64,000 nt of DNA from a virus. The notes under the pieces were generated by a model that did no database searches, was not told the DNA's origin, and saw nothing but the letters and a program-made list of their open reading frames with translations. Positions 2,246 through 64,000 of the stretch are shown piece by piece. A program made the position numbers and the translations under genes. Numbering within the stretch: position 1 is the stretch's first letter; every line of letters starts with the position of its first letter. The stretch spans positions 107,835 through 171,834 of the IMG/VR virus record IMGVR_UViG_3300025120_000017; one strand, given 5' to 3'.

Positions 2246-3492
2246 TAATCATTTATATTTTGTATGAATGTAGGAGTTTCACCATCTAGTAAATTATTAC
2301 CTAATTCATCAATCTTACTTCTTACACCAGCAGCACCTGCACTTACTATACTTCCTGCACTAAATCCATATACATTTCCTAAGAACAATGAACTAAGCCC
2401 AGCTGTTACTGCATTTGTTACTGAAGCTAATGCATCTTTTTTAAGGTCTTCTATAAACCCTTCTGTTGCATTTTTAAGTTCATCTGCTGCTTTTGCTTTT
2501 GCTTTTGCTATTTCATCTTTTAAGTTAAATGCATCGCTAGCACCGTCTACATTAGAAGATGTTTGAATTCCACCTCCACCTAATAAGCTTTTATTAAATT
2601 CGCCTAGACCACCTCCGCTTAAATTTGTTATAATGTTATTTACATAATCTTTAACATACCAGAATTTTTTATCATCTGATTTATATAACATGCTAAGTAT
2701 TTTAAATAGATTACTTTCTTCTACTAATTCATAATCAAATATTAAACTTTGTTGAGCTGCTTCATTACCTCCATTATTAATTGAACTAAATAAATCTCCA
2801 CCTGAGCCCATGTTAATTTCAACAAATGAAAAATCAAACATAAATTGGCTATACTCAAATTCACTTTCGCCAAAAAATGTTTTATTTACTTCTTCTGAGT
2901 TTGAATTAGGTTTAGGTTCAACGCCATCAATCTTATCACCTGCAAGAGATTGCATAAATGTTCTATTATCATAAACCATCACGCCCATTTCAAAATGTCT
3001 TAGGTTATCTGTTAGTACTTCTCTCTTATGTACCCAATCATATGTAGCTTTTCTGTATAAATCAACTAGTGCACTCATTCTTAAGTCTAAAGATTCTATG
3101 CATGCTATTGTAATTTGTCCTTTAATTTCAGGTTTTTCTATTTCAGCTCGTCTTTTCCAACATTCATCTAATCCTGTTATTGATTGAAAGTACCACGGAT
3201 ATTCCTTATTAATCTTTTGTAGTAAATTAACAAAAGTATCAAGCATTTTAAACCTAGTAGTGTCTCCTATTTGATTTAAGTAATATCTAGCAGAATTTGA
3301 ATTTGATGCTGCGCCTAATAATCCACCATGATTAGAATCATTAATTCCTCTAAAAAATAACTTAAATCCTAAATATGTAGGGTCTTCAAACTGTGCTAAA
3401 GTATCTTTAGAATTAGTTCGAGTTTTAAACTTACTAAGATCTTCATTCTTTATATAATTAACGCCGTTTGTATTTTTACTCTCAATTCCCAT
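2245..3492 (-). CDS. Putative baseplate/tail tube-associated protein
   Basis: Position in baseplate cluster; ITIACIESLDLRM segment reminiscent of tube-fold proteins. Confidence 0.45.
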   Translation of the reverse strand: MGIESKNTNGVNYIKNEDLSKFKTRTNSKDTLAQFEDPTYLGFKLFFRGINDSNHGGLLGAASNSNSARYYLNQIGDTTRFKMLDTFVNLLQKINKEYPWYFQSITGLDECWKRRAEIEKPEIKGQITIACIESLDLRMSALVDLYRKATYDWVHKREVLTDNLRHFEMGVMVYDNRTFMQSLAGDKIDGVEPKPNSNSEEVNKTFFGESEFEYSQFMFDFSFVEINMGSGGDLFSSINNGGNEAAQQSLIFDYELVEESNLFKILSMLYKSDDKKFWYVKDYVNNIITNLSGGGLGEFNKSLLGGGGIQTSSNVDGASDAFNLKDEIAKAKAKAADELKNATEGFIEDLKKDALASVTNAVTAGLSSLFLGNVYGFSAGSIVSAGAAGVRSKIDELGNNLLDGETPTFIQNIND

Positions 3493-3496
3493 TTAA

Positions 3497-4957
3497 TTAT
3501 TTACTTTGATTTATATTACCTCCTGGATAAGGCATTGGCCATTCTCTTCTTATAAGGTATACAATTTGAGCAAATGAGCCATCTTTTTGCCAAACAATAT
3601 CATAATCTTTAACAACATACCACCCAGATAAGAAATTATCAATTAAGTATCCCTGTGGATCAGTGTATGCTTCTTCAGTTTTTTGCTCTCTCCCTGCTAG
3701 TTCATCACCTGCAGCTCTCCTATCTTTTGCTTGCTGACCTTGCTTAAATATTGATATTGGAATGCTTTTATATTTTAAAATACTACTTGAAATTCCATTA
3801 AGAGCAATAACAAGTCCCATTTTATTTATTTCTGTATTATTTTGATAGTTTTGTATTTTAGCATAGTGATAATTAGGATGTAAACTGCCTTCATTATCTG
3901 TACTATATCTTCTGCCAAAATATTTATATTTTATTTGATTTTCATAACTATTATCACCTGCTTTACCTTTAAGAATTACATTATCCGTTTCAGCACCTTG
4001 TGTTGTTAAAGGATCAACAAAAAAACTCTCAAATTCATTAGTGTCCATATTAAAAGAATCTGCAAATCTTTTATATCCATTTCTCATCCAAATATCTCCT
4101 GCATTGTTAAAAAGTGAATATGACATAATAAAAGATGAACTAGTTTGCATGTTTTTATGATTACTTAACATAAACTTTTCTTGTACTCCTTCAGGCCCAT
4201 CATTATCCTTGTCTTGATTTGAAAAAGTTGCCGCATCATAATCACCGCTTTGTAATGGGCCTTCTGTTTGAAAGCAACTATTTACATTTACAAAATTTAA
4301 GTAATACCATAAATCTACATAAGAAGTAAAAAAAGAATCCTCATCTTTATATGATGCATCAGTGGTCTTTTGTATAAATTCCTGTATTGTATTTTTTGCA
4401 TTAAATCTAGGCATCTGGTCAGCTGTATCAGTTACATTGCTGGCAAACCCTAACTGTAATGAATCACATATATCTAATAAATGATTATATGAGCTCCCAC
4501 TAGGAAACGATATACTAATATCACTTAATAAGTCAGGAATTTTCATTATACCTGACATTTTATAATTAGTCCCTTCTTTTCGTTGATTTGATTTAATGTT
4601 AAGAATATCAAAATCTATTCTTATTTTTTTAAATTTATCATTATTAGGACTTCTCATATATACCTCAATAAGATCACCATCTTTTGGAAAATCTGCATCA
4701 AGCATATCATCTGGATCCAAGAACTGGATCATAAGAGTTGGCCTAAATCCTATAGTACTTAGTTTAAATTTAATGATATTATTATATGTTAACCTATACC
4801 CATTAATTTTCACAAATGGGTTGGCATACCCTATAAGTTTAGAGTCATCAGGAGAGTCTCCACTTTTTTCATTATAGTTTTCCTTTATAGGAGAAGGCTT
4901 TAACTTAGGCTCTTTGACTGTAAGTACATTAGATGTATTATTTCCTAATATTGACAT
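3497..4957 (-). CDS. Putative baseplate hub protein (gp27-like)
   Basis: Lies between the gp53-like and gp5-like genes; C-terminal FLSGWYVVKDYDI motif typical of hub proteins. Confidence 0.5.
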   Translation of the reverse strand: MSILGNNTSNVLTVKEPKLKPSPIKENYNEKSGDSPDDSKLIGYANPFVKINGYRLTYNNIIKFKLSTIGFRPTLMIQFLDPDDMLDADFPKDGDLIEVYMRSPNNDKFKKIRIDFDILNIKSNQRKEGTNYKMSGIMKIPDLLSDISISFPSGSSYNHLLDICDSLQLGFASNVTDTADQMPRFNAKNTIQEFIQKTTDASYKDEDSFFTSYVDLWYYLNFVNVNSCFQTEGPLQSGDYDAATFSNQDKDNDGPEGVQEKFMLSNHKNMQTSSSFIMSYSLFNNAGDIWMRNGYKRFADSFNMDTNEFESFFVDPLTTQGAETDNVILKGKAGDNSYENQIKYKYFGRRYSTDNEGSLHPNYHYAKIQNYQNNTEINKMGLVIALNGISSSILKYKSIPISIFKQGQQAKDRRAAGDELAGREQKTEEAYTDPQGYLIDNFLSGWYVVKDYDIVWQKDGSFAQIVYLIRREWPMPYPGGNINQSK

Positions 4958-5481: not shown

Positions 5482-7089
5482 TTAAGCAGTTTTAATTGCT
5501 GGAAACTTCTCTTGATATACTCCTGCTACGAACTTTGAAGCTGTTTCTGCTGTATCTATTGTATTATTAGCTGTTTGTAAAGGAGTAACCGTTTTACCAC
5601 CGCCACCTGATGCTGATCTATTTCTATAATATGACTTATCAGCAAAATCTACATCAGATCCATAATACCTATGACCACCATAATTAAACATTTTTTGTAT
5701 TGCATATTTATCTCTTGGCATAGCATGTTTAAGCTTACATGATACAATTATTGCACTAGGAACATCATCTATAGTAAAAGGACCTTCAAAACTAATTGAA
5801 GAATCTTCTAGAGCAAGGTTACCGATCATCATGGTTGGGTTAAAGGGATTACCTACTGTTAGATGCCACTCTCCTGTGCTTTGTGCAGTTAAAAGTGAAT
5901 GTAAGCTATGCATTTCAGGTCTTCCTAATTTATCAAGGCCACCTCCTACTAATTTAGCCATTGAATTACCTCCTAAAGTTTTTCCTAAGTTTCCCATGCT
6001 TTCCATAAATCCACCACTGAATGCATTTGTGAATGTACTCTTAAGATCTTTTGCAAATGATTTTAAAAAACCTACGGTATCCCCACTTCGTAATTTACTA
6101 AAATCTCCAATAGGAGTAGCAAATCCCCCACCTCCTGTAAATCTAACAGCTCCTCCCCAAAACGGCGCTTTACTAGAAGTCATGTTTAGTATGTTACCTA
6201 GAATATCTTGAAATGCTGCTCGTGTATTTATGCCATCATATGAACGAATCTTATACTTGAATTTAACATCAAGGTTATGTTCAAATTTTAATCCACGTGA
6301 TCTAGTATAAATAGAATCTATAACATCTATAGGACCCCATGTAAAATTATCTTGATGACTTGTATATGGGTCAAAGTCTGTTGCTGCCTGTCCTTGAAGC
6401 TTTTCTTTAGCATATCTACCATCTGAATTGAATAATCCTGCTATGTTATTTAGTTTTTTGTTACCAAATGCAGTTTTTCCTCTTTCTATTGTTTGGATTT
6501 CAGATTTGAATTCTTTCCAGTTATATCCTACAGAAAAACTAAACATAGATTCCATTGTATTATCTTCACCATCAATATAACTAATTAGCCTACTTACATC
6601 TCTTGAAGGATTTTCTAATTGATTTTTTAAATTATCTCCACATGGGTTACTAAACCTACGAAGAGTTATCATATAATTATTAGGTATTTTACCATATTTA
6701 GCAGGAAAAAGAAAATCACCTTCTTTATATTGCATTGCATGATCTACAAAATTTTCTCCAAATTCTTTTACTATATTACTGCCTGTTGGGTTTTTTAAAC
6801 CAGTAGCAACATTATTATTAAAGTAATCAGTTGGAGTTCCATAAAAATCAGAGTTTGCATTACCTTGATCATTAAATTTATTAAAGTGTATGACAGATAA
6901 GCTATGTAAAAGAGATTCTCTCCCTTTAATAGGAGGCATATTTTGATTTAGCTTTTCTCCTTTTTTACCATATTTCTTTCCTTCAGGTATATCCTTTTCA
7001 GGAGAATCTCTCCATTTCTGTCTTATTAGAGATCCTGATCCACTTTTATTTAATTTATCTAGGCTTGAATATAATACTTTAGTACTCAT
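5482..7089 (-). CDS. Putative baseplate/tail-tube initiator protein
   Basis: First gene of the baseplate block, behind a late promoter; Gly-rich central part. Confidence 0.4.
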   Translation of the reverse strand: MSTKVLYSSLDKLNKSGSGSLIRQKWRDSPEKDIPEGKKYGKKGEKLNQNMPPIKGRESLLHSLSVIHFNKFNDQGNANSDFYGTPTDYFNNNVATGLKNPTGSNIVKEFGENFVDHAMQYKEGDFLFPAKYGKIPNNYMITLRRFSNPCGDNLKNQLENPSRDVSRLISYIDGEDNTMESMFSFSVGYNWKEFKSEIQTIERGKTAFGNKKLNNIAGLFNSDGRYAKEKLQGQAATDFDPYTSHQDNFTWGPIDVIDSIYTRSRGLKFEHNLDVKFKYKIRSYDGINTRAAFQDILGNILNMTSSKAPFWGGAVRFTGGGGFATPIGDFSKLRSGDTVGFLKSFAKDLKSTFTNAFSGGFMESMGNLGKTLGGNSMAKLVGGGLDKLGRPEMHSLHSLLTAQSTGEWHLTVGNPFNPTMMIGNLALEDSSISFEGPFTIDDVPSAIIVSCKLKHAMPRDKYAIQKMFNYGGHRYYGSDVDFADKSYYRNRSASGGGGKTVTPLQTANNTIDTAETASKFVAGVYQEKFPAIKTA

Positions 7090-7920: not shown

Positions 7921-8303
7921 TCTTGTTCTTTTTTAGTTATTTCTTCAATAGGTAAAAAGCATATTTCAGTATTTATAGAACCTGCCTTATATGCATTTAT
8001 TTTTTTACTTACTTCTGTTATTATGCTTTCAAAAAGATCTTTGTCTATACGAGATACGTAATAATATATAAAAAAACATGGAGTTCTTTTATTGGTAAGC
8101 ATATTCTTGACAGATGTATTTATCTTGGCAAATACATCTGTCTGTAATACTAGGTTACTCTGATCTTCATCAAATATTGTGTATTTTTGATGAGATGCTT
8201 GAATATCTTCATAGCTAATTAAAACACTGTTTTTTGATTTTTTTAAATATGTTTTAAACTGCTTATTGTTTTTAGCATATGTTATTATAAAAAACTTATT
8301 CAT
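7848..8303 (-). CDS. Hypothetical protein
   Basis: 151-aa ORF; its 3' end overlaps the next gene. Confidence 0.6.
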   Translation of the reverse strand: MNKFFIITYAKNNKQFKTYLKKSKNSVLISYEDIQASHQKYTIFDEDQSNLVLQTDVFAKINTSVKNMLTNKRTPCFFIYYYVSRIDKDLFESIITEVSKKINAYKAGSINTEICFLPIEEITKKEQECLNQLKDQRNLKLLEKIIILKKS

Positions 8304-53990: not shown

Positions 53991-54995
53991 TTAATTAAAT
54001 GAATATATTGCAGCCACAACAATGCTGCTTAAATTATCCTTTTGTTCAAATACATTTTCACTTGTTTTATCAAATCTATATTCTACTTTTAGGTTTAAGT
54101 TATCATCAACTGTATAATCTAAAGTAGTTGTTAAATTAATAACATCTGCGTCTGTTCCAATAGCACCTACACCAGCACCAGTTTCTGCAAAATATTCTGC
54201 TCTAACACCAGCACTTAATTTACCAAAATCATATTGAGGATATAAAGCAACTCCGTAAAACCCACTTCCTTCAGTATCATTATATGTAGAGTTAACACCT
54301 AAATAAAACTTTTCTGATAAATCATAACCTGCTGTTAAGTCAATTTGAAAAGTATGCGTTAAACTAGGATCTTGTTTTCCATATAACACATTTAAATAGG
54401 TATTTTTATATCCTAACTGAGCCCCTAACGTGTTTAAATTAGATGGATTATATTCTGTAACATCAGTAGCATTTAAGATTGCTAACATACCTGTAAAGTT
54501 TTTAGACAATTTAAAATCAGCTTTTAAACCACTGTGAGAAAACGGCCCATAACTAAACATGTAAGAAGTTGAATAGTTAAAGTTTCCTGTTGGGCTAATA
54601 ACCTCATAACCTAAAAATGTATTGAAATTACCCATAGTTAAAGTAATGTTATCACTAACATCCCAATAAGCATAAAGTTGGTTTATAATATTGGAACTAC
54701 CATTTGATAAGAATACTGCATCTTCACCTCTTGGTCCGAAAACCAGGTCAGCTACAAATCCAGTATTATCAGTATCATAAGAACTGATTAGGTTAAACAT
54801 TCCTAAACTAAATCCGTTGCCATTTGCAAATGAAGTAGTAGGCGCTATATCTGTATTTGATGTACTTAAGTTATTTCTAAAGTAGATGTCTGCACTACCT
54901 TCTAATGATAGTTTTGATTTTTCTGTAGCTAGGCTATCCTGGCTATAAATAAATGTTGTACTTAGTACAAATAAAAGTGTAAATATACTTTTCAT
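53991..54995 (-). CDS. Outer-membrane beta-barrel porin (BBP2/DUF1597-like)
   Basis: Signal peptide; GNFNTFLGYEVISP..NFNYSTSYMF; C-terminal AIYSF. Confidence 0.85.
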   Translation of the reverse strand: MKSIFTLLFVLSTTFIYSQDSLATEKSKLSLEGSADIYFRNNLSTSNTDIAPTTSFANGNGFSLGMFNLISSYDTDNTGFVADLVFGPRGEDAVFLSNGSSNIINQLYAYWDVSDNITLTMGNFNTFLGYEVISPTGNFNYSTSYMFSYGPFSHSGLKADFKLSKNFTGMLAILNATDVTEYNPSNLNTLGAQLGYKNTYLNVLYGKQDPSLTHTFQIDLTAGYDLSEKFYLGVNSTYNDTEGSGFYGVALYPQYDFGKLSAGVRAEYFAETGAGVGAIGTDADVINLTTTLDYTVDDNLNLKVEYRFDKTSENVFEQKDNLSSIVVAAIYSFN

Positions 54996-55020
54996 AATTA
55001 AATTCTTTTTTTAGTGTAAA

Positions 55021-55045
55021 ATAAAAGGGCACAAGGCCCTTCTAT
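55021..55045 (-). terminator. Hairpin between amtB and the porin gene
   Basis: Minus strand AAGGGC-CTTGT-GCCCTT followed by TTATTTT. Confidence 0.55.
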
Positions 55046-55097
55046 TTAAAATTTAAAACCCATGATACTTTAAATATCGTGGATAGTTTATTAATGC

Positions 55098-56315
55098 TTA
55101 TTTAGTTTTAGGATATGCATCCATACCATGCTCAGCATTATCTAGTCCATTTACCTCTTCTTCTCGTGAAACTCTAAGTCCTATAATTTTCTTGATGGTA
55201 AATAATATCAAGAAAGATGTGATTAAGCAGAATCCTGCTATTGTCACAACTCCAAAGAATTGTTTAATAAATTGACTAACTCCTGCCATGTTGCCAAAGA
55301 TACCTACTGCTAAGGTACCCCATACTCCACAGCCTAAATGTACTGCTATTGCACCTACTGGATCATCTAATTTAAGCTTATCCAATAATGTAACAATGTA
55401 CACAACAACTACTCCGCCAATAAGTCCAATTATAACAGATTCATTTGGACTCATTTGATCTGCTCCTGCTGTGATAGAAACCAAACCTCCCAATATTCCA
55501 TTTAAGAACATTGTTAAATCAAAGTTTTTATCTTTAAGAAGCGTAGTAAATGCAGATGCAACTCCTCCTGCCGCAGCAGCAAGACAAGTTGTTACTAAGG
55601 TTAATGATGTTAATGCAGGATCTGCGCTTAATACAGAGCCACCATTAAACCCAAACCACCCAAGCCATAATATCAATACTCCTGCCGTAGCAAAAGGGAT
55701 ATTATGTCCTAAAATAGGAATGGATTTACCATTTTTAAATTTACCGATCCTAGCTCCAAGTAACCATACAGCTACAAGAGCAGCCCAACCTCCGACAGAG
55801 TGTACTAAGGTTGATCCAGCAAAGTCATAGAATCCTAGATTGTCTAAGAATCCCCCTCCCCACTTCCAGCTACCTACAATCGGATAAACTAATCCAACAT
55901 AGATTAAACTAAAAATCATAAAACTTGTTAACTTCATTCTTTCAGCCACTGCACCTGATACAATAGTTGCTGCGGTAGCTGCAAACATACCTTGAAACAG
56001 AAAATCTGTCCACCAAGTATATCCTCCTGAAGCATATTCAGCAGTCATTCCATTTACAGGAGCATCAATTCCAAATCCTGCAAATTTAATAACTCCCAAA
56101 CCACCTTCTTCAAAGCCAGGGTACATAAGGTTGAATCCACCTATGTAGTAAATAAGCAATCCCATGCAAATGATGAAGATATTTTTGAATAGGATGTTAA
56201 TGGTATTTTTTTGTCTTGTTAGTCCTATTTCTAACAAACTAAATCCGAGGTGCATAAAAAACACCAAACCTGTACAAACCATCATCCACAGGTTATTAAC
56301 TGTCAACATTTCCAT
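55098..56315 (-). CDS. amtB: Ammonium transporter
   Basis: FQGMFA; SGAVAER; DFAGSTLVH; GWFGFNGGS; DDPVGAIAVH (both pore His residues present). Confidence 0.97.
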   Translation of the reverse strand: MEMLTVNNLWMMVCTGLVFFMHLGFSLLEIGLTRQKNTINILFKNIFIICMGLLIYYIGGFNLMYPGFEEGGLGVIKFAGFGIDAPVNGMTAEYASGGYTWWTDFLFQGMFAATAATIVSGAVAERMKLTSFMIFSLIYVGLVYPIVGSWKWGGGFLDNLGFYDFAGSTLVHSVGGWAALVAVWLLGARIGKFKNGKSIPILGHNIPFATAGVLILWLGWFGFNGGSVLSADPALTSLTLVTTCLAAAAGGVASAFTTLLKDKNFDLTMFLNGILGGLVSITAGADQMSPNESVIIGLIGGVVVVYIVTLLDKLKLDDPVGAIAVHLGCGVWGTLAVGIFGNMAGVSQFIKQFFGVVTIAGFCLITSFLILFTIKKIIGLRVSREEEVNGLDNAEHGMDAYPKTK

Positions 56316-56323
56316 CTCTCTTT

Positions 56324-56662
56324 TTAATTTAAAGTTTGATTTCCACGATCCGACGTTCGGATACGGTATGCTTCTTCGATATTACTAACGAAGATTTTAC
56401 CATCACCTACTTTGCCTGTTTTACCAGACTCCAAGATGGCTTTAATTGTTCTATCCAAGAATTCGTCTGAAACGACTATGGATAAGTACCTACGTTGAAT
56501 ATCGTTAGTACTGTGTTCTACCCCTCGATAGCTTATACCGAGTTTCTCATTGCCGTGCCCAGTGCAGTCCCAATAACTAAAAAAAGTTACCTTAACATTC
56601 ATGAGTGCGGCTTTCACATCATCAAACTGAGATTTTCTGATAATGGCTTCCACTTTTTTCAT
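56324..56662 (-). CDS. glnK: P-II nitrogen regulatory protein
   Basis: MKKVEAIIR; TGKVGDGKIFV; RIRT; directly upstream of amtB. Confidence 0.93.
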   Translation of the reverse strand: MKKVEAIIRKSQFDDVKAALMNVKVTFFSYWDCTGHGNEKLGISYRGVEHSTNDIQRRYLSIVVSDEFLDRTIKAILESGKTGKVGDGKIFVSNIEEAYRIRTSDRGNQTLN

Positions 56663-56700
56663 AGTGTTTATTTAAGTTAAAAATTAATATACTGTATTTA

Positions 56701-56982
56701 TTAGTCTTTAATTTCTTCTAATATTGTTATCAATTCATCAAGAAGGTTTTTTTGGGCTTCTTTATAAGTTTTACAATGTGGCCAATGATTTATAGGATGC
56801 TTTGGTCTACGATATACACCGTTAGAGTATATTTTATAAATAAATTTATTACCGCATTTTTCTATCCATGTAAAATATCCTTTTTCTGTTCTAGACCATT
56901 TAAAAATTTTATATGGAGTTGGGATGTTATAATATCCTAATTTTATAATTCTTAAAATAAGATTAAACGGTATTAAATCCAC
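56701..56982 (-). CDS. Hypothetical protein, related to 35538..35999
   Basis: IFKWSRTEKGY; KTYKEAQKNLLDELI. Confidence 0.55.
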   Translation of the reverse strand: MDLIPFNLILRIIKLGYYNIPTPYKIFKWSRTEKGYFTWIEKCGNKFIYKIYSNGVYRRPKHPINHWPHCKTYKEAQKNLLDELITILEEIKD

Positions 56983-57044
56983 TTTAGATAGTGTTTAATT
57001 TATATAACGTCTAATATGCTAAAATTTTTAATTTGCGAATTAAA

Positions 57045-57136
57045 AACAAACACTTAGGTTCATGGTGCTCTTCTGACTAAAGGTTTCCTTTAGTTAAACA
57101 GTGAATTAACACAACCCGTATTACCATATGTTTGTT
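57045..57136 (-). ncRNA. Candidate ~90-nt structured RNA
   Basis: AACAAACA/TGTTTGTT closing stem; ATGGT/ACCAT; ACTAAAGG-AAA-CCTTTAGT hairpin. Confidence 0.4.
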
Positions 57137-57143
57137 AAATTTA

Positions 57144-57327
57144 AAAACTCTCCAAGTCCTCCAAGTAGGAATAACGAATTGTCATGTTGCGAACATCTAC
57201 AATACAAATTATCTTCTGTCAAAGCTAACACTTCTTGGTAGTGTTGTGATACCTGAGTTGTTTCCTCCTGAGACAGCCTAGCACTGTAAGCGTATTCACT
57301 TGCTCATCCATTAGCTTGGAGAGTCTT
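57144..57327 (-). ncRNA. Candidate ~180-nt multibranched structured RNA
   Basis: Perfect 10-bp terminal inverted repeat ACTCTCCAAG/CTTGGAGAGT plus nested stems; G-U pairs favour the minus strand. Confidence 0.55.
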
Positions 57328-57333
57328 ATCTTT

Positions 57334-57666
57334 TCATTTTGATTTTAATTCCTTAACAAATTCACTTAATTTAGATTCCCATTTCTTAGGAAACTTTTGG
57401 CCTCCATTAACGGCTTTTAGCAATGATGTTTCAGGCAGCCCAGCAGCCTTTTCAATTCCAGCAATACTCAAGAGTTCTTTATTGTCTCTAATCCAAACAA
57501 TATCTTTATTTCTTTCAGAGTTTTTAAAGTTTTCTATAGCTTTAAGTAAATACAAATTGCTAATACTTTGTCTGGCTCCAAGTGAAATGTTTTCTTTCAC
57601 AAAATCCATAACCATTTCATCTGTCCACTTAAATGTGTGAACTGACTTTCTTCTTTTCTTTTCCAT
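57334..57666 (-). CDS. Putative Cro-like HTH DNA-binding protein
   Basis: LSIAGIEKAAGLPETSLLKAVNG. Confidence 0.55.
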   Translation of the reverse strand: MEKKRRKSVHTFKWTDEMVMDFVKENISLGARQSISNLYLLKAIENFKNSERNKDIVWIRDNKELLSIAGIEKAAGLPETSLLKAVNGGQKFPKKWESKLSEFVKELKSK

Positions 57667-57668
57667 AA

Positions 57669-58037
57669 CTAAAATAAAGAATATTGAATAGGTTCTTGGT
57701 TAAATCTTGCTTTATACAATTGCATAAATGGAATGTCTGAAATTAATCTAGGTTTCCATATTACATTATCGCTAATTGGAGATAATTGTAACACATCTTT
57801 GTATAAGTCAATGTATTTTACAATGTACTTTACTGTAGATCCTTCACCTAATGTAATAACATCATTTACTTCAACGTTAAGCCAATTAGGATTTCTTAAT
57901 TCAATCCAATACTTCATAAATACTGATACATCAGAAAATTCATCAACTTTCTTATATGTTAATGTTTCTGGGTGCTTTTTATATGTTTCAAATATAGCAC
58001 GATCATTTTTTGTCTCTGGTACTTTCATAATTTTCAT
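57669..58037 (-). CDS. Hypothetical protein
   Basis: 122 aa. Confidence 0.6.
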   Translation of the reverse strand: MKIMKVPETKNDRAIFETYKKHPETLTYKKVDEFSDVSVFMKYWIELRNPNWLNVEVNDVITLGEGSTVKYIVKYIDLYKDVLQLSPISDNVIWKPRLISDIPFMQLYKARFNQEPIQYSLF

Positions 58038-58040
58038 AAT

Positions 58041-58280
58041 TTAAAATGGTAAATCCTCCTCAGGCATAAATATTGTTTTACTGTATTTTTCTAATGTCTT
58101 TAATTTATCATCAGCATCTGTTAACTTTTGTAAAGCCTCTTCTGCGTTTTTATAAAAATCTTCAGTTGAATGATCTCCGATTCCAGCAGGATGATTACAT
58201 AATAGAGATAGAGTTGTTTTAGCCTCTTCCTTCTCAGCCTCAGCTTTACTTTTCAATAGTTTAAATAGTCGAATGTGCAT
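58041..58280 (-). CDS. Conserved small phage helical-hairpin protein
   Basis: HPAGIGDHS motif between two helices. Confidence 0.65.
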   Translation of the reverse strand: MHIRLFKLLKSKAEAEKEEAKTTLSLLCNHPAGIGDHSTEDFYKNAEEALQKLTDADDKLKTLEKYSKTIFMPEEDLPF

Positions 58281-58683
58281 AAATGTAAGAATTATATATT
58301 TTTTTAATGTTTTTTAATTTTTTTGCTAATTCATCATCACCAGAATCAACTAAATTAGTTAATTGCTTATAGCCGTTAATTGCTGTTGCATGATCTCTGT
58401 TTACTTTTTTTGCTATCAATGTATATGGCGCATCAGTAAACAGTCTTGCTAAATAGTAATAGACTGCTCTAGCATCAACTACCTGTCTTCCTCTATAATT
58501 TGTCTTAAATGAATTCTTACTTATATTAAAGTCATTTGATACTGCTTTAATAATCATATCAAGCTTTTCAACATCGCTTGTTTTACTATTTTGGTTTTTG
58601 AAATATAAGATAGTGTCTTCATAATCAAAACCTTCTCTGAATAGTAAAAATGCTTTTTTTAAATCTTCTTTACTGAATGTCAT
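58261..58683 (-). CDS. Stand-alone DnaA C-terminal (domain IV) HTH protein
   Basis: RGRQVVDARAVYYYLAR...IAKKVNRDHATAINGYK. Confidence 0.8.
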   Translation of the reverse strand: MTFSKEDLKKAFLLFREGFDYEDTILYFKNQNSKTSDVEKLDMIIKAVSNDFNISKNSFKTNYRGRQVVDARAVYYYLARLFTDAPYTLIAKKVNRDHATAINGYKQLTNLVDSGDDELAKKLKNIKKIYNSYIYAHSTI

Positions 58684-58703
58684 GTTTTATGTTTAGTACG
58701 TTT

Positions 58704-58711
58704 CAAATATA
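58704..58711 (-). promoter_or_regulatory. Bacteroidota-type sigma-A -7 element (TAxxTTTG)
   Basis: TATATTTG 21 nt upstream of the DnaA-C gene, in an intergenic gap. Confidence 0.5.
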
Positions 58712-58774
58712 AAAAAAGAAACTTTAATATTAAACTAATTTAGGTTTTTTAATTAAATATTTTCACATATGAGA

Positions 58775-59023
58775 TTAATTAAAAACAGAACGTAAAATAC
58801 CTATCTTAGGATGTTCTAATTCATAATATCGGCAAACCTTTGAATAGTTTCCATTTTCAAATCTAACCAAGTAAACCCATAAACCAATACTCTCCAAAGA
58901 TTTTATACTATCTAATCCCCAAATTTGCTTAGATTTTGGGTTAGGTTCCTTAAATACCACAGTCCCCTTAACACCATCAACTATTACTGAATCGCCTATT
59001 TGATATAATATTTCACCATTCAT
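58775..59023 (-). CDS. Hypothetical SH3-like small protein
   Basis: YQIGDSVIVDGVKGTV. Confidence 0.55.
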   Translation of the reverse strand: MNGEILYQIGDSVIVDGVKGTVVFKEPNPKSKQIWGLDSIKSLESIGLWVYLVRFENGNYSKVCRYYELEHPKIGILRSVFN

Positions 59024-59030
59024 TAAGATG

Positions 59031-59117
59031 CTACTTTTTTCTAATAAACTCTATGATAATAAGAACTAAACCTATGATAAGAATTGTTCCTGTTATAGTA
59101 AACACATGGTCATGCAT
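59031..59117 (-). CDS. Single-TM microprotein (28 aa)
   Basis: MHDHVFTITGTILIIGLVLIIIEFIRKK (manual translation). Confidence 0.45.
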   Translation of the reverse strand: MHDHVFTITGTILIIGLVLIIIEFIRKK

Positions 59118-59241
59118 TCTCATGCCTACTTCTTATTTTTTTAATAATAATCTGAAAACTTGTTACAACTAATCCACATATTGAAAAGCCAACAGCAGTC
59201 ATTATAATAATTGGGATTATCCATGCTAATACTCCACTCAT
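59110..59241 (-). CDS. Single-TM microprotein (43 aa)
   Basis: MSGVLAWIIPIIIMTAVGFSICGLVVTSFQIIIKKIRSRHENA. Confidence 0.5.
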   Translation of the reverse strand: MSGVLAWIIPIIIMTAVGFSICGLVVTSFQIIIKKIRSRHENA

Positions 59242-59248
59242 ATATTAT

Positions 59249-59326
59249 TTACTTAATTTTACTAGTTATTATTAATGTAGCTGTTAATGCAAGCCACCAT
59301 ACTCCTATTCCAATTGCAGGTACCAT
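59249..59326 (-). CDS. Single-TM microprotein (25 aa)
   Basis: MVPAIGIGVWWLALTATLIITSKIK. Confidence 0.45.
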   Translation of the reverse strand: MVPAIGIGVWWLALTATLIITSKIK

Positions 59327-59329
59327 ATT

Positions 59330-59623
59330 TTATTTAATAAATTTAGACATATGTTTAATTTGAAATCCCATAGAGAGAAAGTTTGCTTCAATTCTCTTCT
59401 TACCTTTAAATTTTAAAACAAAAAACTCTAAAAAACTTTCAATTTTTGAGTTATCATAAAACGGGTCTAATAACTGATTATTAATATCTGACATTAATTT
59501 ATTTGATGAATGATAAACTTCATATAGTTGATTTGAAAGTGCTTGCCCAGTTCTTAACTCAGGATGCTTATCTAGCATGGCTGATGAATCAACAATTAAT
59601 TTCTTAAACTTTTTAATATCCAT
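59330..59623 (-). CDS. Hypothetical protein
   Basis: HPELRTGQAL..DPFY motif. Confidence 0.65.
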   Translation of the reverse strand: MDIKKFKKLIVDSSAMLDKHPELRTGQALSNQLYEVYHSSNKLMSDINNQLLDPFYDNSKIESFLEFFVLKFKGKKRIEANFLSMGFQIKHMSKFIK

Positions 59624-59830
59624 AATTTACTTTTATAGCTGTTGATTGATATTTGCCTTCTTCTCCAAAGTCTTCCATTACATTTATTGCAACATCAGTA
59701 TCTAATTGGCATATTATAGAAGATATATCTGATAAAAAAGATTCTTTATCAACTATACTATGTTCTGATAATAAGTTTCTTAAATCAGACTTAATGGAAT
59801 TTGCCTTTCCTTGTCTTTCTTTATCTAATT

Positions 59831-60106
59831 TCATATAGATTCTCTTAACATTTCTAACCAAGATTCTCTTTTCATCATGCTATGTAGAGTATGCATGTTT
59901 TTAATTAGGTCATCATAGTCTTTCCCAGTAATTAACTGGCTTTCTGGGTTAGGAATATTTGAATATGCATCTAGGCCTTGCATCACTGTTCCATATTGCC
60001 TGCTCTCCATTACTTCAATTCCTTTATCTGTTAAATGACAAAGATATAAAATGCTTCTTGCTTTTATATGTACATCTACTCCATCTGCGGTTTTTAATTC
60101 TAACAT
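59831..60106 (-). CDS. Hypothetical protein
   Basis: 91 aa. Confidence 0.55.
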   Translation of the reverse strand: MLELKTADGVDVHIKARSILYLCHLTDKGIEVMESRQYGTVMQGLDAYSNIPNPESQLITGKDYDDLIKNMHTLHSMMKRESWLEMLRESI

Positions 60107-60231
60107 ATTTCTTTAATTGTTTTAACGGTTTTACATGCTATTTTTATTGATACTAATAGGATAAAAAATAATCCTATTATACTAAGTATTAAACCACCTA
60201 GTAATGATAATATTATTAGTAATATGCTCAT
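60100..60231 (-). CDS. Single-TM microprotein (43 aa)
   Basis: MSILLIILSLLGGLILSIIGLFFILLVSIKIACKTVKTIKEIC; overlaps both neighbouring genes by a few nt. Confidence 0.5.
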   Translation of the reverse strand: MSILLIILSLLGGLILSIIGLFFILLVSIKIACKTVKTIKEIC

Positions 60232-60554
60232 TTTCGTTTTGTATAATAAGGTTCCCATCCAATTTCTTTAACATAGTCATCTTTAAATATACCATTAGCA
60301 CCTTCAATATAAACAGCATAAGGTACTTCTTTATCTTTATTCATAGCTTCTCTATAATCAATCTGACAGCCGTTCCATGTATTTATAAAATAATCAGCAT
60401 CTTCTTGATTGTGAAATCCAAGAGTCTTATTCATTTCTTCCCAAACAGTAGTATGATTGTTAAGACTCTCAAATGCGCTTTTTCTAATTCTTGCAGTATT
60501 CTTATGTACTATTACTTTTATCATATCTTTATTATTTAGTAATCTAATCCACAA
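60228..60554 (-). CDS. Hypothetical protein
   Basis: 108 aa. Confidence 0.55.
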   Translation of the reverse strand: MWIRLLNNKDMIKVIVHKNTARIRKSAFESLNNHTTVWEEMNKTLGFHNQEDADYFINTWNGCQIDYREAMNKDKEVPYAVYIEGANGIFKDDYVKEIGWEPYYTKRK

Positions 60555-60739
60555 TATTCTAAAATCTGTGATACTTGTATATTATCAATTCCTAGTTTTT
60601 TTGCAATTACATTAATTGAATCTTCATTTAGATAATATTGAACTACCTTTTCATTTAATGTTAATTCTTTAGACTTTTTAATCTTTACTTTACTTGATCT
60701 TATACTATCTCTAAGATCTTCAAAATCTTCTTTACGCAC
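60536..60739 (-). CDS. Small HTH-like protein
   Basis: SINVIAKKLGIDNIQVSQIL. Confidence 0.5.
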   Translation of the reverse strand: MRKEDFEDLRDSIRSSKVKIKKSKELTLNEKVVQYYLNEDSINVIAKKLGIDNIQVSQILEYCGLDY

Positions 60740-61175
60740 GTTCCATATAGTTTAATAGTTCTTTTGCTAATTCTCTGCATTTATTAATTAAGAAAGTAGT
60801 TTCCTCAGTGTGATGTTTTTCCAATTTATTATATAGGTCCATTGGGCTATTTACATCTGTTAAATCCTTAGGATCAAATCTATCTATTTTAATCCATTTA
60901 TACGAATTTAATATCTGTTTTAATTCATCTTTTTTGGATTTATTAATTTCTTTTAATTTAATTGAATATGATGCAAAGTTTGGAACATTTTTTCTTACAT
61001 AATCATCAAATAATTTATCCCACTTTTCATAATCAATCGAGTGAATATCCTTAGTAACATAAATATCTAATGTAACATCATTATAAACATTATTACCTAC
61101 GTATGCTCGACATTCGATTGTTACTAAATAATATGCTTGATCTTTTTCAATTCTATAGTCTTCTAATTTACTCAT
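60732..61175 (-). CDS. Hypothetical cassette-array ORF
   Basis: MSK start behind the junction motif. Confidence 0.65.
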   Translation of the reverse strand: MSKLEDYRIEKDQAYYLVTIECRAYVGNNVYNDVTLDIYVTKDIHSIDYEKWDKLFDDYVRKNVPNFASYSIKLKEINKSKKDELKQILNSYKWIKIDRFDPKDLTDVNSPMDLYNKLEKHHTEETTFLINKCRELAKELLNYMERA

Positions 61176-61187
61176 CTTCTTTTTGGT

Positions 61188-61490
61188 TTAAACCCATTTA
61201 ATAAAATTATTATCTGACTCAATATCTTTTATTTTTTCTTCGTTTGGTCTAATTACAACAGCCAATGATTGAACCTTATTATCTTGTTTGAAGTCTTTCA
61301 TTAAGTTTTCCCATCTTTCAATTTCTTTTGCTCTCCATTGGTTTAATGTTGTATCTTCATCAAACACTAGAAAGTATCCTTTGTGTAAATCTGTTCCAAC
61401 ACCAGTTTCCCATGTAAATTCTCCATGTGTTTCTTTTGGGTGTCGTGGTTCATTATATCCCCACTTTAAATAAAATCTTTCTTTGCTCAT
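61188..61490 (-). CDS. Hypothetical cassette-array ORF
   Basis: 100 aa, MSKERF. Confidence 0.6.
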   Translation of the reverse strand: MSKERFYLKWGYNEPRHPKETHGEFTWETGVGTDLHKGYFLVFDEDTTLNQWRAKEIERWENLMKDFKQDNKVQSLAVVIRPNEEKIKDIESDNNFIKWV

Positions 61491-61729
61491 CTTTTTTCCT
61501 TTTTATGTTGTACTAAATAACTTGCTGTTAATATTTTATATGTATGCTCAAAGCAAATCTCATGCTCCCATATGTTATCAGAAACGTTGTATTCAGAAAT
61601 AACCTCTCCTACTACATTCAATATACCAGCTTCTACACATTTAATACAATCTTTTCTATTCATTAAAGATGTATCTATCTTAACTTTATCACCGATATTA
61701 AATTTATAATCCGCTATTAATTTACTCAT
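61487..61729 (-). CDS. Hypothetical cassette-array ORF (SH3-like KFNIGDKV)
   Basis: 80 aa. Confidence 0.6.
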   Translation of the reverse strand: MSKLIADYKFNIGDKVKIDTSLMNRKDCIKCVEAGILNVVGEVISEYNVSDNIWEHEICFEHTYKILTASYLVQHKKEKR

Positions 61730-61741
61730 CTTTGTTTTGGT

Positions 61742-61927
61742 TTAATAGTTCTTTATAATCCAATGAACCATTTCCTTATAATTAATTGTAGTCTGCTCCA
61801 AATTACCTTTACTATCTCTTGTAAATAATTGGTCTTCGTTGTACCACTCAGGTTTTATCTCCACAAACTCTTTAGCTTCTTTACCTTTACTTTGTGCCCA
61901 TTCTCTAAATAATCTTCTTCCGTTCAT
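61742..61927 (-). CDS. Hypothetical cassette-array ORF
   Basis: 61 aa. Confidence 0.55.
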   Translation of the reverse strand: MNGRRLFREWAQSKGKEAKEFVEIKPEWYNEDQLFTRDSKGNLEQTTINYKEMVHWIIKNY

Positions 61928-62102
61928 CTTTGTTTTGATTTAATGGTTCTCTCGTATCTACAAAATCATGTGGGTCTCCATCTAGATTATTTTCTTGTAT
62001 CCAGGTGTTGAGATTTTTATAAAGACTGTTTCTTAAAGGGCCTTTTAGTTCTTTTAATTCATACATAAACTGGTCTAGTTTGTATAGTACTTCTTTACTC
62101 AT
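61905..62102 (-). CDS. Hypothetical cassette-array ORF
   Basis: Reads through the junction as LNQNKDE. Confidence 0.55.
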   Translation of the reverse strand: MSKEVLYKLDQFMYELKELKGPLRNSLYKNLNTWIQENNLDGDPHDFVDTREPLNQNKDERKKII

Positions 62103-62337
62103 CTTTGTTTAAATTATCTTGAATATATTCTATTATCATTTTAGGTGTTATATTACAACCACCATGTTCAATTTCATATTCACCGAATCCAAGTTCACTA
62201 AATTCTACTCTCTTTATAATTTGTTTAGTTCTGGGATTATATATTCTCACCTCTGCTTTTCTATCCATATCATGCTCTATGATATATTTCCATTCTACCC
62301 CTTTTACATTTATATTTCTGAGTTTTCCTTTACTCAT
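62095..62337 (-). CDS. Hypothetical cassette-array ORF
   Basis: Ends LNKDE*. Confidence 0.6.
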   Translation of the reverse strand: MSKGKLRNINVKGVEWKYIIEHDMDRKAEVRIYNPRTKQIIKRVEFSELGFGEYEIEHGGCNITPKMIIEYIQDNLNKDE

Positions 62338-62338
62338 C

Positions 62339-62515
62339 TTATTTTTGGTTTAATTCTTTAATCTCAAATACTTTACAATCTTCAACATCTACACAATTTG
62401 ACATTTCTTTTTTCCATTTTAACATTTTCTTTATGTTAGTTGAAATGTTATACCCTATTGTAAAGTCATCATTTCTCTCATCATGAATTAACCCTATGTA
62501 TCTTTTTTTACTCAT
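62339..62515 (-). CDS. Hypothetical cassette-array ORF, 58 aa (not in track)
   Basis: MSKKRYIGLIHDERNDDF...ELNQK. Confidence 0.55.
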   Translation of the reverse strand: MSKKRYIGLIHDERNDDFTIGYNISTNIKKMLKWKKEMSNCVDVEDCKVFEIKELNQK

Positions 62516-62526
62516 CTTAGTTTTGA

Positions 62527-62802
62527 TTAGTATTCGTGTATAATAGTTTCTTTCAATTCTTCAGGTGTTCGTTGTTTAATATCCATTTCTATACATTTTC
62601 TTGCTTCAGATAGAGATATATAAACATCTCTTTTCAGGGCACCTTTTTCATTCCAACTCTGAAAATATTGATACTCTGATTTAATAGTATTACCATTTTC
62701 ATGTTGACCTAAAGTATAATAAACTACACTTTCATCTTTATATTGTGGGTAGAAATAACTTACATGTTCGTACTTTTCTTCTATGATTCTATATTTTCTC
62801 AT
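62527..62802 (-). CDS. Hypothetical cassette-array ORF
   Basis: MRKYRIIEE..FYPQYK. Confidence 0.6.
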   Translation of the reverse strand: MRKYRIIEEKYEHVSYFYPQYKDESVVYYTLGQHENGNTIKSEYQYFQSWNEKGALKRDVYISLSEARKCIEMDIKQRTPEELKETIIHEY

Positions 62803-62963
62803 CTTCTTTTTGGTTTAATACTAATAATAAGTTCTTTTAACCAAACATTAAAAACTTGTCTTGGTTTTTTTCTTTTACCTACTTCTTCTTGCACCATCAT
62901 ACCTCTCATGTAAGATTGGGTGGCTATTTTTTCTACTTCTTCTGTTGTATATGTTTTACTCAT
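62799..62963 (-). CDS. Hypothetical cassette-array ORF, 54 aa (not in track)
   Basis: MSKTYTTEEVEKIATQSY... Confidence 0.55.
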   Translation of the reverse strand: MSKTYTTEEVEKIATQSYMRGMMVQEEVGKRKKPRQVFNVWLKELIISIKPKRR

Positions 62964-62986
62964 CTTTGTTTTGGTTTTTTAACTAT

Positions 62987-63262
62987 TTATATACATGCTA
63001 AATATTCAAAATTTGATAGAGTGAACTCTTCTGTTCTTCCAGGTGTAGAATGGAGATATTCAACAATAACTTTATCGTTTTTTATATCTTTAACAATTAC
63101 AGATACAGGGGATGATGAACCTAAATCTAAATTAAATTGTTTTCCTATTATATCTTCTTTACTCATCTTAGTTCCTGTTGTAACAAATTCTGCTATTGGA
63201 ATAGTTTTAGGAAATACTCTTTTAAGTATTGGTAATGATGGTCCTTTCTTTTCCTTACTCAT
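62987..63262 (-). CDS. Cassette-array ORF with an in-frame internal second MSK start
   Basis: AAGATGAGTAAAG again at 63166. Confidence 0.55.
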   Translation of the reverse strand: MSKEKKGPSLPILKRVFPKTIPIAEFVTTGTKMSKEDIIGKQFNLDLGSSSPVSVIVKDIKNDKVIVEYLHSTPGRTEEFTLSNFEYLACI

Positions 63263-63275
63263 CTTTGTTTTGATT

Positions 63276-63386
63276 TTAATCTCTTGTTACTATACAACCC
63301 ATATTTTCAAGTTGTTCTAATATTGCCTCAAACTCTTCTTTACTAAAATCATCTAATAAGGAAGTATCTATTATTATATTACTCAT
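63276..63386 (-). CDS. Cassette-array microprotein, 36 aa (not in track)
   Basis: MSNIIIDTSLLDDFSKEEFEAILEQLENMGCIVTRD. Confidence 0.5.
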   Translation of the reverse strand: MSNIIIDTSLLDDFSKEEFEAILEQLENMGCIVTRD

Positions 63387-63392
63387 CTTTGT

Positions 63393-63674
63393 TTAGTTCT
63401 TTTTTACACTATCAACAAACCACTTTTGTTTAAAATCTTCATCAATAGTACATTTATTAATAAATTCTTCTTTTGATAAATGCCATTCATTATTTTTTCT
63501 ACTTTTCCAATAATTGAAGTATCTATTATACGCTACTTCTTGTTTATAAAATGAACTGCTATTTGAATCATCTATTTGTTTTTGTAATAACAAATTGTTT
63601 TTTTTAATTAAAATGTAAGACTGTCGCATTACATGTAAAGAAATTATTATTATTATAAGTAAAAATATTGTCAT
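63393..63674 (-). CDS. Hypothetical membrane-anchored ORF
   Basis: Hydrophobic N-terminus. Confidence 0.55.
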   Translation of the reverse strand: MTIFLLIIIIISLHVMRQSYILIKKNNLLLQKQIDDSNSSSFYKQEVAYNRYFNYWKSRKNNEWHLSKEEFINKCTIDEDFKQKWFVDSVKKN

Positions 63675-63877
63675 TGGTTTAGTTCTTTTAATAATTTTAC
63701 ATCAATAGATAAAACATTAGCTACATCATTTTTAGTATAAGACTTTGAGTATATTCGCAGTTCTTCTGTTAGGGTATTACCATAAGCAAATTTACCTAAA
63801 TATCTTTCTACCCATTCAGTTTCACTTATAGGTATTCTTAGTAAACCTATGCTTGATATTTCTATTCTATTGTTCAT
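63671..63877 (-). CDS. Hypothetical cassette-array ORF
   Basis: Ends ELNQ*. Confidence 0.55.
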   Translation of the reverse strand: MNNRIEISSIGLLRIPISETEWVERYLGKFAYGNTLTEELRIYSKSYTKNDVANVLSIDVKLLKELNQ

Positions 63878-64000
63878 CTTCTTTTCCTTTTAATTCTTTT
63901 TCAATTATCTTTACCATTTCATCAAATGTAACTCCTTCTTCGTCTGCTCGTTGTTGTATGAATTTTGCTGGTAGATGTATATAATTTGCTTGACCTAATC
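63867..64000 (-). CDS. Partial cassette-array ORF (3' end only)
   Basis: ...VKIIEKELKGKEDEQ* reads through the junction. Confidence 0.5.
   Translation of the reverse strand, partial: LGQANYIHLPAKFIQQRADEEGVTFDEMVKIIEKELKGKEDEQ

Follow-up and report, generated by a model that had tools for sequence, protein, structure and literature searches.

Promoter-early stem-loops (PeSLs) of T4-type phages are short conserved motifs that recur between small, dispensable ORFan genes within a hyperplastic genome region (Arbiol et al. 2010, PMC2839356; Comeau et al. 2014, PMC4122927). The insertions, deletions and replacements found between relatives break in the motif, probably by homologous recombination with no dedicated recombinase, and recombination between nearby motifs yields mini-circles. 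Each PeSL is a unit of transcription placed in an intergenic gap, where a promoter of sigma-70 type with an AT-rich region upstream is combined with a G/C stem-loop terminator and a Shine-Dalgarno (SD) sequence (PMC2839356). Start-associated sequences (SAS) of cluster K mycobacteriophages are short asymmetric repeats, all in one orientation, that directly precede the ATG of many non-structural genes unrelated to one another and do not occur in host genomes (Pope et al. 2011, PMC3203893); the upstream stop sometimes lies inside the repeat, and a role in translation initiation has been proposed but is unproven (PMC3203893). Integrons and clusters of attC sites lacking integrases (CALIN) hold one-directional arrays of promoter-less, unrelated small cassettes, whose content varies among close relatives and comes from a common cassette pool. 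Here we describe a phage gene array that resembles each of these systems in part. It lies in the window, by which we mean the whole 64,000-nucleotide stretch analysed, namely the final 64 kb (positions 107,835 to 171,834) of the 171,834-bp linear IMG/VR contig IMGVR_UViG_3300025120_000017 (CheckV completeness 67%, GC about 30%). The genes of the array are joined by one conserved sequence of 25 nt, hereafter called the junction.

The PeSL is the closest described system, and modular shuffling at conserved inter-cassette motifs is a kind of process that is already known. The contig encodes T4-type terminase and neck genes, and the nearest cultured relative of its large terminase subunit (TerL) is that of Tenacibaculum phage PTm1 (35% identity). 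However, no promoter or stem-loop terminator, both of which were tested, was detected at the junction. Its 25 nt reach into both flanking genes, include stops in three frames and stand at a fixed distance from the ATG, and the junction is common to phages with about 31% protein identity, whereas PeSLs are common to close pairs only. Like SAS, the junction is asymmetric, precedes unrelated genes in one orientation and is absent from host genomes. In contrast, SAS are 13 bp long, hold an SD core at a variable 3-7 bp from the start, are scattered over half the genome and have not been reported as recombination switch points. The junction has no SD core, and the genome is itself SD-poor (an SD-like motif at 8 of the 195 gene starts outside the array, with an adenine maximum at -14 to -11). 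Compared with integrons and CALIN, no IntI-type recombinase was found, the junction contains no attC-like imperfect palindrome, and it lies within the coding and initiation region, not between genes. The translational architecture, the three-frame stops and the very wide phylogenetic spread are what is distinctive here.

The array in the window consists of 13 small genes on the minus strand (61167-64000), joined by eight strong and five weaker junction copies. The genes of this stretch tile it without gaps, every one on the minus strand; the cassettes share a single orientation, and internal promoter or terminator signals were not detected among them. In the window the junction has the form TTAAAyCAAAAnnAAG-ATG-AGT-AAA (minus strand). 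A position weight matrix (PWM) was trained on the eight near-full copies and scanned over the entire contig with a cut-off of 12 bits. These eight copies (ATG 61175, 61729, 61927, 62337, 62515, 62802, 62963 and 63262) score 30-40 bits each, and the 11 sites at or above the cut-off are all on the minus strand, all within 61175-63877 of the window; the scan found no junction copy elsewhere in the 172-kb contig, and the genes downstream of the 147-aa gene at the end of the array are without it. A 24-nt pattern allowing up to three mismatches gave seven matches in the window against 0.03 expected from shuffles, and a shorter pattern gave eight reverse-strand matches in the contig, none on the forward strand and none for the backwards control. 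The tails of upstream genes span the junction in all three frames (...LNKDE*, ...ELNQK*, ...IKPKRR*, ...KGKEDEQ*), and the upstream stop falls within -16 to +8 of the next ATG in 10 of 13 cases. BLASTP among the cassette proteins of the window found no mutual similarity. Most of what a reading of the DNA letters (the sequence-only reading) had claimed for this region is borne out by these results: near-full copies at eight ATGs, DNA that encodes both the upstream tail and the next start, unrelated sequences between junctions, and no junction at the other genes of the window. Its five shortened copies fared unevenly, with 62102 (16 bits), 63877 (14.5 bits) and 63386 (12.8 bits) recognisable by the PWM and 61490 and 63674 weak, an A-rich run plus ATGA being all that remains. 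The array itself also stands, but not the end assigned to it (61167-63895), because it extends to the contig end at 64000 and is truncated there.

Beyond this contig, the exact junction pattern is present in 114 IMG/VR stretches, where by a rough estimate about one or fewer would be expected by chance, and arrays reach 19 copies (within 6.5 kb of a 242-kb contig). From 243 unique IMG/VR instances the 25-nt consensus is T-TAA-ACC-AAA-ACA-AAG-ATG-AGT-AAA, with conservation that sets in abruptly at -16 and has faded by about +8/+9. It contains one stop per frame: TAA at -15, TGA at +1 and TAA at +5. Upstream ORFs end at +5 (79 instances), +1 (56) or -15 (44), together 179 of 243 (74%). Because the block is translated as part of the upstream gene in any of the three frames, what is conserved is DNA or RNA and not a peptide. 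When one ascertaining instance per locus is left out, serine at codon 2 is written AGT in 71 of 73 cases, against 30% AGT among the serine codons in the bodies of the same genes, and the junction-to-ATG spacing is exact (one value in 293 instances, another in 18). The junction, an element at the nucleotide level that is specific to these phage arrays, leads 296 collected genes in 189 protein clusters, with a median length of 64 aa (range 30-471 aa). In 596 Gb of prokaryote genomes only three exact matches were found, in AT-rich contigs of metagenome-assembled genomes (MAGs), L154-L156 (JAZGEW010000157.1, WVXN01000057.1 and CAKZOX010000091.1), from two archaeal MAGs and one Campylobacteraceae MAG; two of these hold 2-3 junctions in tandem and the third a single copy. 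Misbinning of phage contigs is the probable explanation, and a host-genome motif was rejected on these counts. Meanwhile, a blastn search of 50,697 phage records, cultured or from GenBank, gave no match to the array, a 31-nt junction query against the same records gave chance-level matches only (E >=0.2), and tblastn with two cassettes found nothing.

Exchange at the junction is seen when related arrays are aligned; all relatives compared are metagenome assemblies. A close relative, locus L169 (metagenome contig Ga0209535_1000685), was found via the 147-aa gene at the array end. Its positions 6404-6530 are identical to the end of gene X in the window in 127 of 127 nt, and its positions 7977-8100 are identical to window 61190-61067, which holds the last junction and the start of the 147-aa gene, in 124 of 124 nt. 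The segment enclosed by these anchors spans 2.66 kb and 12 cassettes in the window but 1.43 kb and six cassettes in L169, none of which resembles any of the window's 12. On the gene X side the two sequences agree as far as the ATGA of junction 63877, and they become identical again from the TAAACC of junction 61175. The L169 array starts two junction-led cassettes upstream of gene X, which is complete there. Gene X, which flanks the variable block, encodes about 65 aa (...LGQANYIHLPAKFIQQRADEEGVTFDEMVKIIEKEL...) and is found at window 63867-64000, L169 6334-6531 and L135 14748-14942; its DNA identity is 93-100% across several arrays (93-95% to array contigs G001 and G005). It resembles a ribbon-helix-helix protein by eye, an assignment set aside as it is without Pfam support.

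Two further comparisons and a pooled analysis agree with this. G001, a 103-kb contig that includes locus L135, shares with the window array four cassette-sized blocks of 93-97% DNA identity in changed order: gene X, cassette 8, cassette 11, cassette 12 in the window, and 8, 12, X, 11 in G001. Beyond the array, the two contigs have two short blocks just outside it (86-98%), and the only other notable similarity is the ammonium-transporter region (75.5%). Loci L089 and L105 have flanks of 1.2 kb and 4 kb that are 98-99% identical, and between two junctions hold one cassette versus two unrelated ones. For 43 junction pairs in which only the downstream cassette is common, mismatch stays at the random level (0.62-0.72) up to -17 and is 0.03 inside the junction; 43 pairs with the upstream cassette alone in common give the mirror image, reaching the random level by about +12. 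BLAST alignment ends are concentrated at -17..-14 and +3..+15. It is at the junction that homology between relatives starts and stops, and, as in PeSLs, the indel and replacement breakpoints of related phages lie within the motif.

Single cassettes also occur in phages that have little else in common. The window contig (G000) and array contig G002, which includes locus L136, share 25 proteins with a mean identity of 31%, while their DNA similarity is confined to cassette 8, at 95.7%. The synonymous divergence (dS) of cassette 8 between them is 0.20, and the ratio of non-synonymous to synonymous divergence (dN/dS) over six copies is 0.2-0.55, so that cassette 8 is a real gene under purifying selection that has moved recently. 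Of its seven contexts, no two have the same upstream neighbour, and six different genes stand downstream of it; it is junction-flanked in nearly all. TerL identity among the array-bearing contigs is 30-42%. Cassettes move between very distant phages. Searches of the cassettes against Pfam and PHROGs returned nothing save one PHROG of unknown function (E 0.009), and a confident AlphaFold model of cassette 8 (pLDDT 84) had no match in the PDB at E <=0.001.

The sequence of the junction is compatible with the general start context of the genome yet distinct from it. In Flavobacterium johnsoniae the positive determinants of initiation are A at -3, -6, -12 and -13 (Baez et al. 2019, PMC6847099). 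All four are present in the junction consensus, which holds no AGGAG-like run, and its low predicted structure likewise agrees with the SD-less, Kozak-like initiation of Bacteroidia. Since the SD-poor, A-rich starts of the contig match the pattern described for Bacteroidia (PMC6847099), a host of Flavobacteriia type is likely. However, C at -11, -10 and -5 and G at -1 each occur at only 7-10% of the other 195 gene starts, which are merely A-rich, and on this ground a genome-wide start context was rejected as the source of the motif. The idea that the junction renders its start unusually accessible was also rejected, because predicted accessibility (0.58) equals that of other starts (0.56; random positions, 0.44). 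Termination-reinitiation couples genes whose stop and start are close (Huber et al. 2019, PMC6728339; 2023, PMC10666635) and fails beyond roughly 20 nt (PMC10666635). The stop-to-start distances of the junction are below this limit in all three frames, with stop and start no more than 15 nt apart, as ATGA and ATGAGTAA overlaps or a 12-nt gap. Geometry and base composition fit a stop-restart adaptor for translation in an SD-less host, which the junction would then be. Such coupling and A-rich initiation are general features without a fixed sequence, whereas here one exact 25-nt word stands at every boundary and across phages.

We consider it probable that the junction is a portable 25-nt stop-restart adaptor and, at the same time, a homology patch for cassette exchange. 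In the mRNA, the three-frame stops would end any incoming upstream gene, and within 15 nt of the stop the ribosome would meet an unstructured A-rich initiation site (A at -3, -6, -12 and -13), followed by ATG-AGT-AAA. If the ribosomes of the host ignore SD sequences, a promoter-less and terminator-less string of unrelated small genes would therefore be translatable in succession. In the DNA, the junction is the only sequence common to otherwise unrelated cassettes, within a genome and between phages, and the breakpoints of exchange fall there. During co-infection, homology-dependent recombination or template switching via the UvsX/RecA-type system of the phage, a gene of which family is present at G000:53454-54233, could replace, insert or delete one or many cassettes, each gene staying intact and expressed. 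The outcome would be a hypervariable accessory-gene array fed by the cassette pool of very distantly related large phages. A wider proposal, which we put forward tentatively and with less confidence than the adaptor itself, is that of a cassette commons: large T4-related phages with about 31% protein identity, whose SD-less hosts are probably Flavobacteriia, would keep one exact 25-nt word as a universal adaptor, through which a small gene of any member could enter any array by homology alone and be translated at once, with no recombinase or promoter needed, and the word would be kept by selection for exchangeability and not only for expression.

Several points weigh against the adaptor reading. 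A length of 25 nt is near the lower limit of homology for RecA-type recombination, and some exchange points lie outside the junction. The cassette-8 homology of G002, for example, begins 12 nt inside the gene, and this copy is without a canonical junction upstream. Breakpoints at gene borders could also stem from selection acting on random illegitimate joins. The host type is deduced from start sites and the translational coupling from the geometry of the junction, and both should be read as predictions. In addition, the strict C at -11, -10 and -5 and G at -1 exceed what initiation generally needs, and accessibility is only ordinary. Something other than initiation must preserve the exact word, be it selection for homology, gene conversion or binding by a specific factor.

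The last of these is the main rival, which is compatible with the adaptor reading and which we regard as unlikely. A phage-encoded factor would bind the block, either as a translational repressor or endoribonuclease of early mRNAs, after the manner of T4 RegA and RegB, or as a DNA silencer resembling the 'stoperators' of mycobacteriophages, and recombination would be a side effect. The same strictly kept bases, together with AGT as codon 2, go beyond general initiation needs and would suit a binding site, as would the restriction of the motif to one gene block of the genome and its absence from prokaryote genomes save the three MAG contigs; SAS of cluster K mycobacteriophages have been discussed likewise (PMC3203893). 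However, no RegA-family protein was found in the five array-bearing contigs tested for machinery (G000, G001, G002, G003 and G005; 29-89% complete, G002 being the 89% one), where a single 13-bit match fell below the cut-off, a weak negative for incomplete contigs. The phages are also so diverged (TerL 30-42%) that a common factor must be very conserved or mobile, and none was identified.

It is improbable that each junction is instead a promoter of phage-specific transcription, every cassette forming its own transcription unit in a PeSL-like layout. The length of the block is near that of a single-subunit RNA polymerase promoter, and the shuffling motif of T4-type phages is a promoter (PMC2839356); but the spacing to the ATG is fixed to the base, and the block reaches from the upstream stop into the first three codons, as would suit a translational unit. 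No terminator-like site was found in window 56000-64000 (0 against 1.9 expected), promoter-like sites were not in excess (38 against 51.4 in shuffles) and none, sigma-70-like ones included, coincides with a junction, and the full Bacteroidota promoter motif (-33/-7, TTTG...TAnnTTTG) is missing from the gene strand within the array. Nor was a T7-like or multisubunit RNA polymerase gene detected in the five contigs, again a weak negative for incomplete contigs.

A site-specific recombinase target, i.e. a true attC/attI-like system whose enzyme is outside the assembled contigs or of unknown family, has a still smaller chance of being correct. The one-directional, promoter-less cassettes bounded by a repeated site are what such a system would show. 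However, no tyrosine recombinase (PF00589) was found in G000, G001, G002, G003 or G005, the control genomes all being positive, and a serine recombinase occurs only in G005, about 20 kb from the array. Unlike attC, the asymmetric, A/C-rich junction lacks a complementary arm, and neither inverted repeats nor a foldable structure were found at its copies; an Rfam scan of window 58000-64000 gave no family. Exchange points spread across the whole block and its edges, not over one fixed phosphate. The sequence-only reading had called the array integrase-free, with shuffling at breakpoints in the junction and a motif distinct from the genome-wide start context, and we agree with it on all three, on the basis of the recombinase search in the five contigs, of L169, L089/L105, G001 and the mismatch profiles, and of the rare C and G positions, respectively. 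Its comparison with an integron was apt for the outcome and not for the machinery, as neither an IntI-type recombinase nor an attC-like structure was found. The translational coupling that it proposed, and its possible anti-defence role for the cassettes, should still be taken as predictions.

Two further explanations seem to us highly improbable, and about equally so. Decayed tandem duplication would make the junction a remnant gene boundary and the cassettes paralogs diverged past recognition; tandem paralog families do exist in these phages (seven MNRFNKK...HG genes at L135 145-1396), but the cassettes are of unequal length (36-100 aa in the window) and without mutual similarity, the junction is far more conserved than any coding sequence, identical cassettes have different neighbours in unrelated phages, and identical flanks surround wholly different cassette sets. 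An assembly artefact, in which assemblers join different phages at the 25-nt repeat, would suit the position of the arrays at the contig end in G000, G001 and G002 and, by eye, in about 45% of the loci in contigs of at least 20 kb, places where assemblers struggle, but the final k-mers of metagenome assembly are longer than the repeat, arrangements recur in independent samples (L045, L085 and L096 versus L028; L159, L160 and L161), and many arrays lie deep within long contigs, e.g. at 47-69 kb of a 210-kb contig. The contig-end positions suggest that assemblies break in these hypervariable repeats and that arrays are probably under-represented and truncated in databases.

Table 1. Coordinates of the array, its junctions and cassettes, and the nitrogen-uptake genes in the window
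Feature	Position	Strand	Remarks
Cassette array as present in contig	61167-64000	-	cut by contig end
Gene X, C-terminal 43 codons; conserved left anchor of variable block	63867-64000	-	ends ...KGKEDEQ* inside junction 63877
Junction, variant copy (TTAAAAGGAAAAGAAG ATG AAC); left switch point versus L169	63869-63893	-	PWM 14.5 bits
Cassette 1, 68 aa (MNNRIEIS...)	63671-63877	-	L084 homolog, 83% aa
Cassette 2, 93 aa, hydrophobic N-terminus	63393-63674	-	start with weak junction only (AACTAAACCA ATGA)
Cassette 3, 36 aa	63276-63386	-	shortened junction 63378-63402, 12.8 bits
Cassette 4, 91 aa	62987-63262	-	full junction 63254-63278
Cassette 5, 54 aa	62799-62963	-	junction 62955-62979; ends ...IKPKRR*, reading through next junction (ATGA overlap)
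Cassette 6, 91 aa	62527-62802	-	junction 62794-62818
Cassette 7, 58 aa	62339-62515	-	junction 62507-62531; L086 homolog, 75% aa
Cassette 8, 80 aa (MSKGKLRNINVKG..., MSKGKLRNI...)	62095-62337	-	junction 62329-62353
Cassette 9, 65 aa	61905-62102	-	variant junction 62094-62118, 16 bits
Cassette 10, 61 aa	61742-61927	-	junction 61919-61943
Cassette 11, 80 aa	61487-61729	-	junction 61721-61745; G001 homolog directly after gene X
Cassette 12, 100 aa	61188-61490	-	weak junction 61482-61506
Last full junction; right switch point versus L169	61167-61191	-	PWM
147-aa gene, right anchor of variable block, last junction-led gene	60732-61175	-	
P-II/GlnK-like protein	56327-56662	-	PF00543
Ammonium transporter Amt	55098-56315	-	PF00909, E 7e-115
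OmpL-like beta-barrel porin	53994-54995	-	PF07642

Two cassettes of the array deserve comment (Table 1). Cassette 4 contains a degenerate in-frame junction at 63157-63181 (ATG 63165; ACTAAG-ATG-AGT-AAA-GAA), and it looks like two cassettes fused after loss of the junction's stops, or a gene with an internal start. Cassette 12 has 91% aa identity to its G001 homolog and 51% to those of L017, L025 and L044. Other repeated elements accompany the arrays of relatives. The seven tandem paralogs of L135 (about 55 aa each; G001 88144-89395) are each preceded by TAGAGT-ACAAAC/GTAAAG-AGATTA-(G/A)-(G/T)AT; being true paralogs, they form an array of another kind in a phage that also carries a junction array. 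In L169, several small genes upstream of the junction array (1597-4224) are preceded by the repeated word TTGTACCAA(T/A), 12-20 nt before the ATG. The word is absent from the window and may be a second junction or promoter family. The head of the G002 array (L136 6160-6290, minus strand) is an intergenic region between divergent genes; it contains a Bacteroidota-like candidate promoter (TTTG, about 20 nt, TATATTTA), after which the first junction-like start of that array is found, a layout that fits a single candidate promoter feeding the entire array.

Elsewhere in the window, a nitrogen-uptake module of three genes on the minus strand (53994-56662) encodes P-II/GlnK-like, Amt and OmpL-like porin proteins. 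P-II and Amt genes are also present in G001 with 85-87% protein identity, despite almost nothing else being common to both contigs. A 140-aa protein (58264-58683, minus strand) contains the C-terminal helix-turn-helix domain of DnaA (PF08299, E 4e-16) and no ATPase part; it is a candidate DnaA-box binder and might interfere with the initiation of host replication.

The junction gives a sequence-level handle on the turnover of accessory ORFan genes in large phages, with base-level definition of both the unit that is exchanged and the site of exchange. More than 100 uncultured phage contigs contain this 25-nt word, and cassette pools can therefore be mined by a junction search; the 296 junction-led genes already in hand represent 189 families, all without known function. 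The arrays are also a natural test case for the gene-to-gene passage of ribosomes that ignore SD sequences, and a compact module of three-frame stop and restart might serve polycistronic expression in Bacteroidota. If the cassettes are host-takeover or counter-defence genes, the arrays would be a variable arsenal of this phage group. If the cassette commons is real, these phages would possess an integron-like platform for gene capture and expression that works without a recombinase or a promoter.

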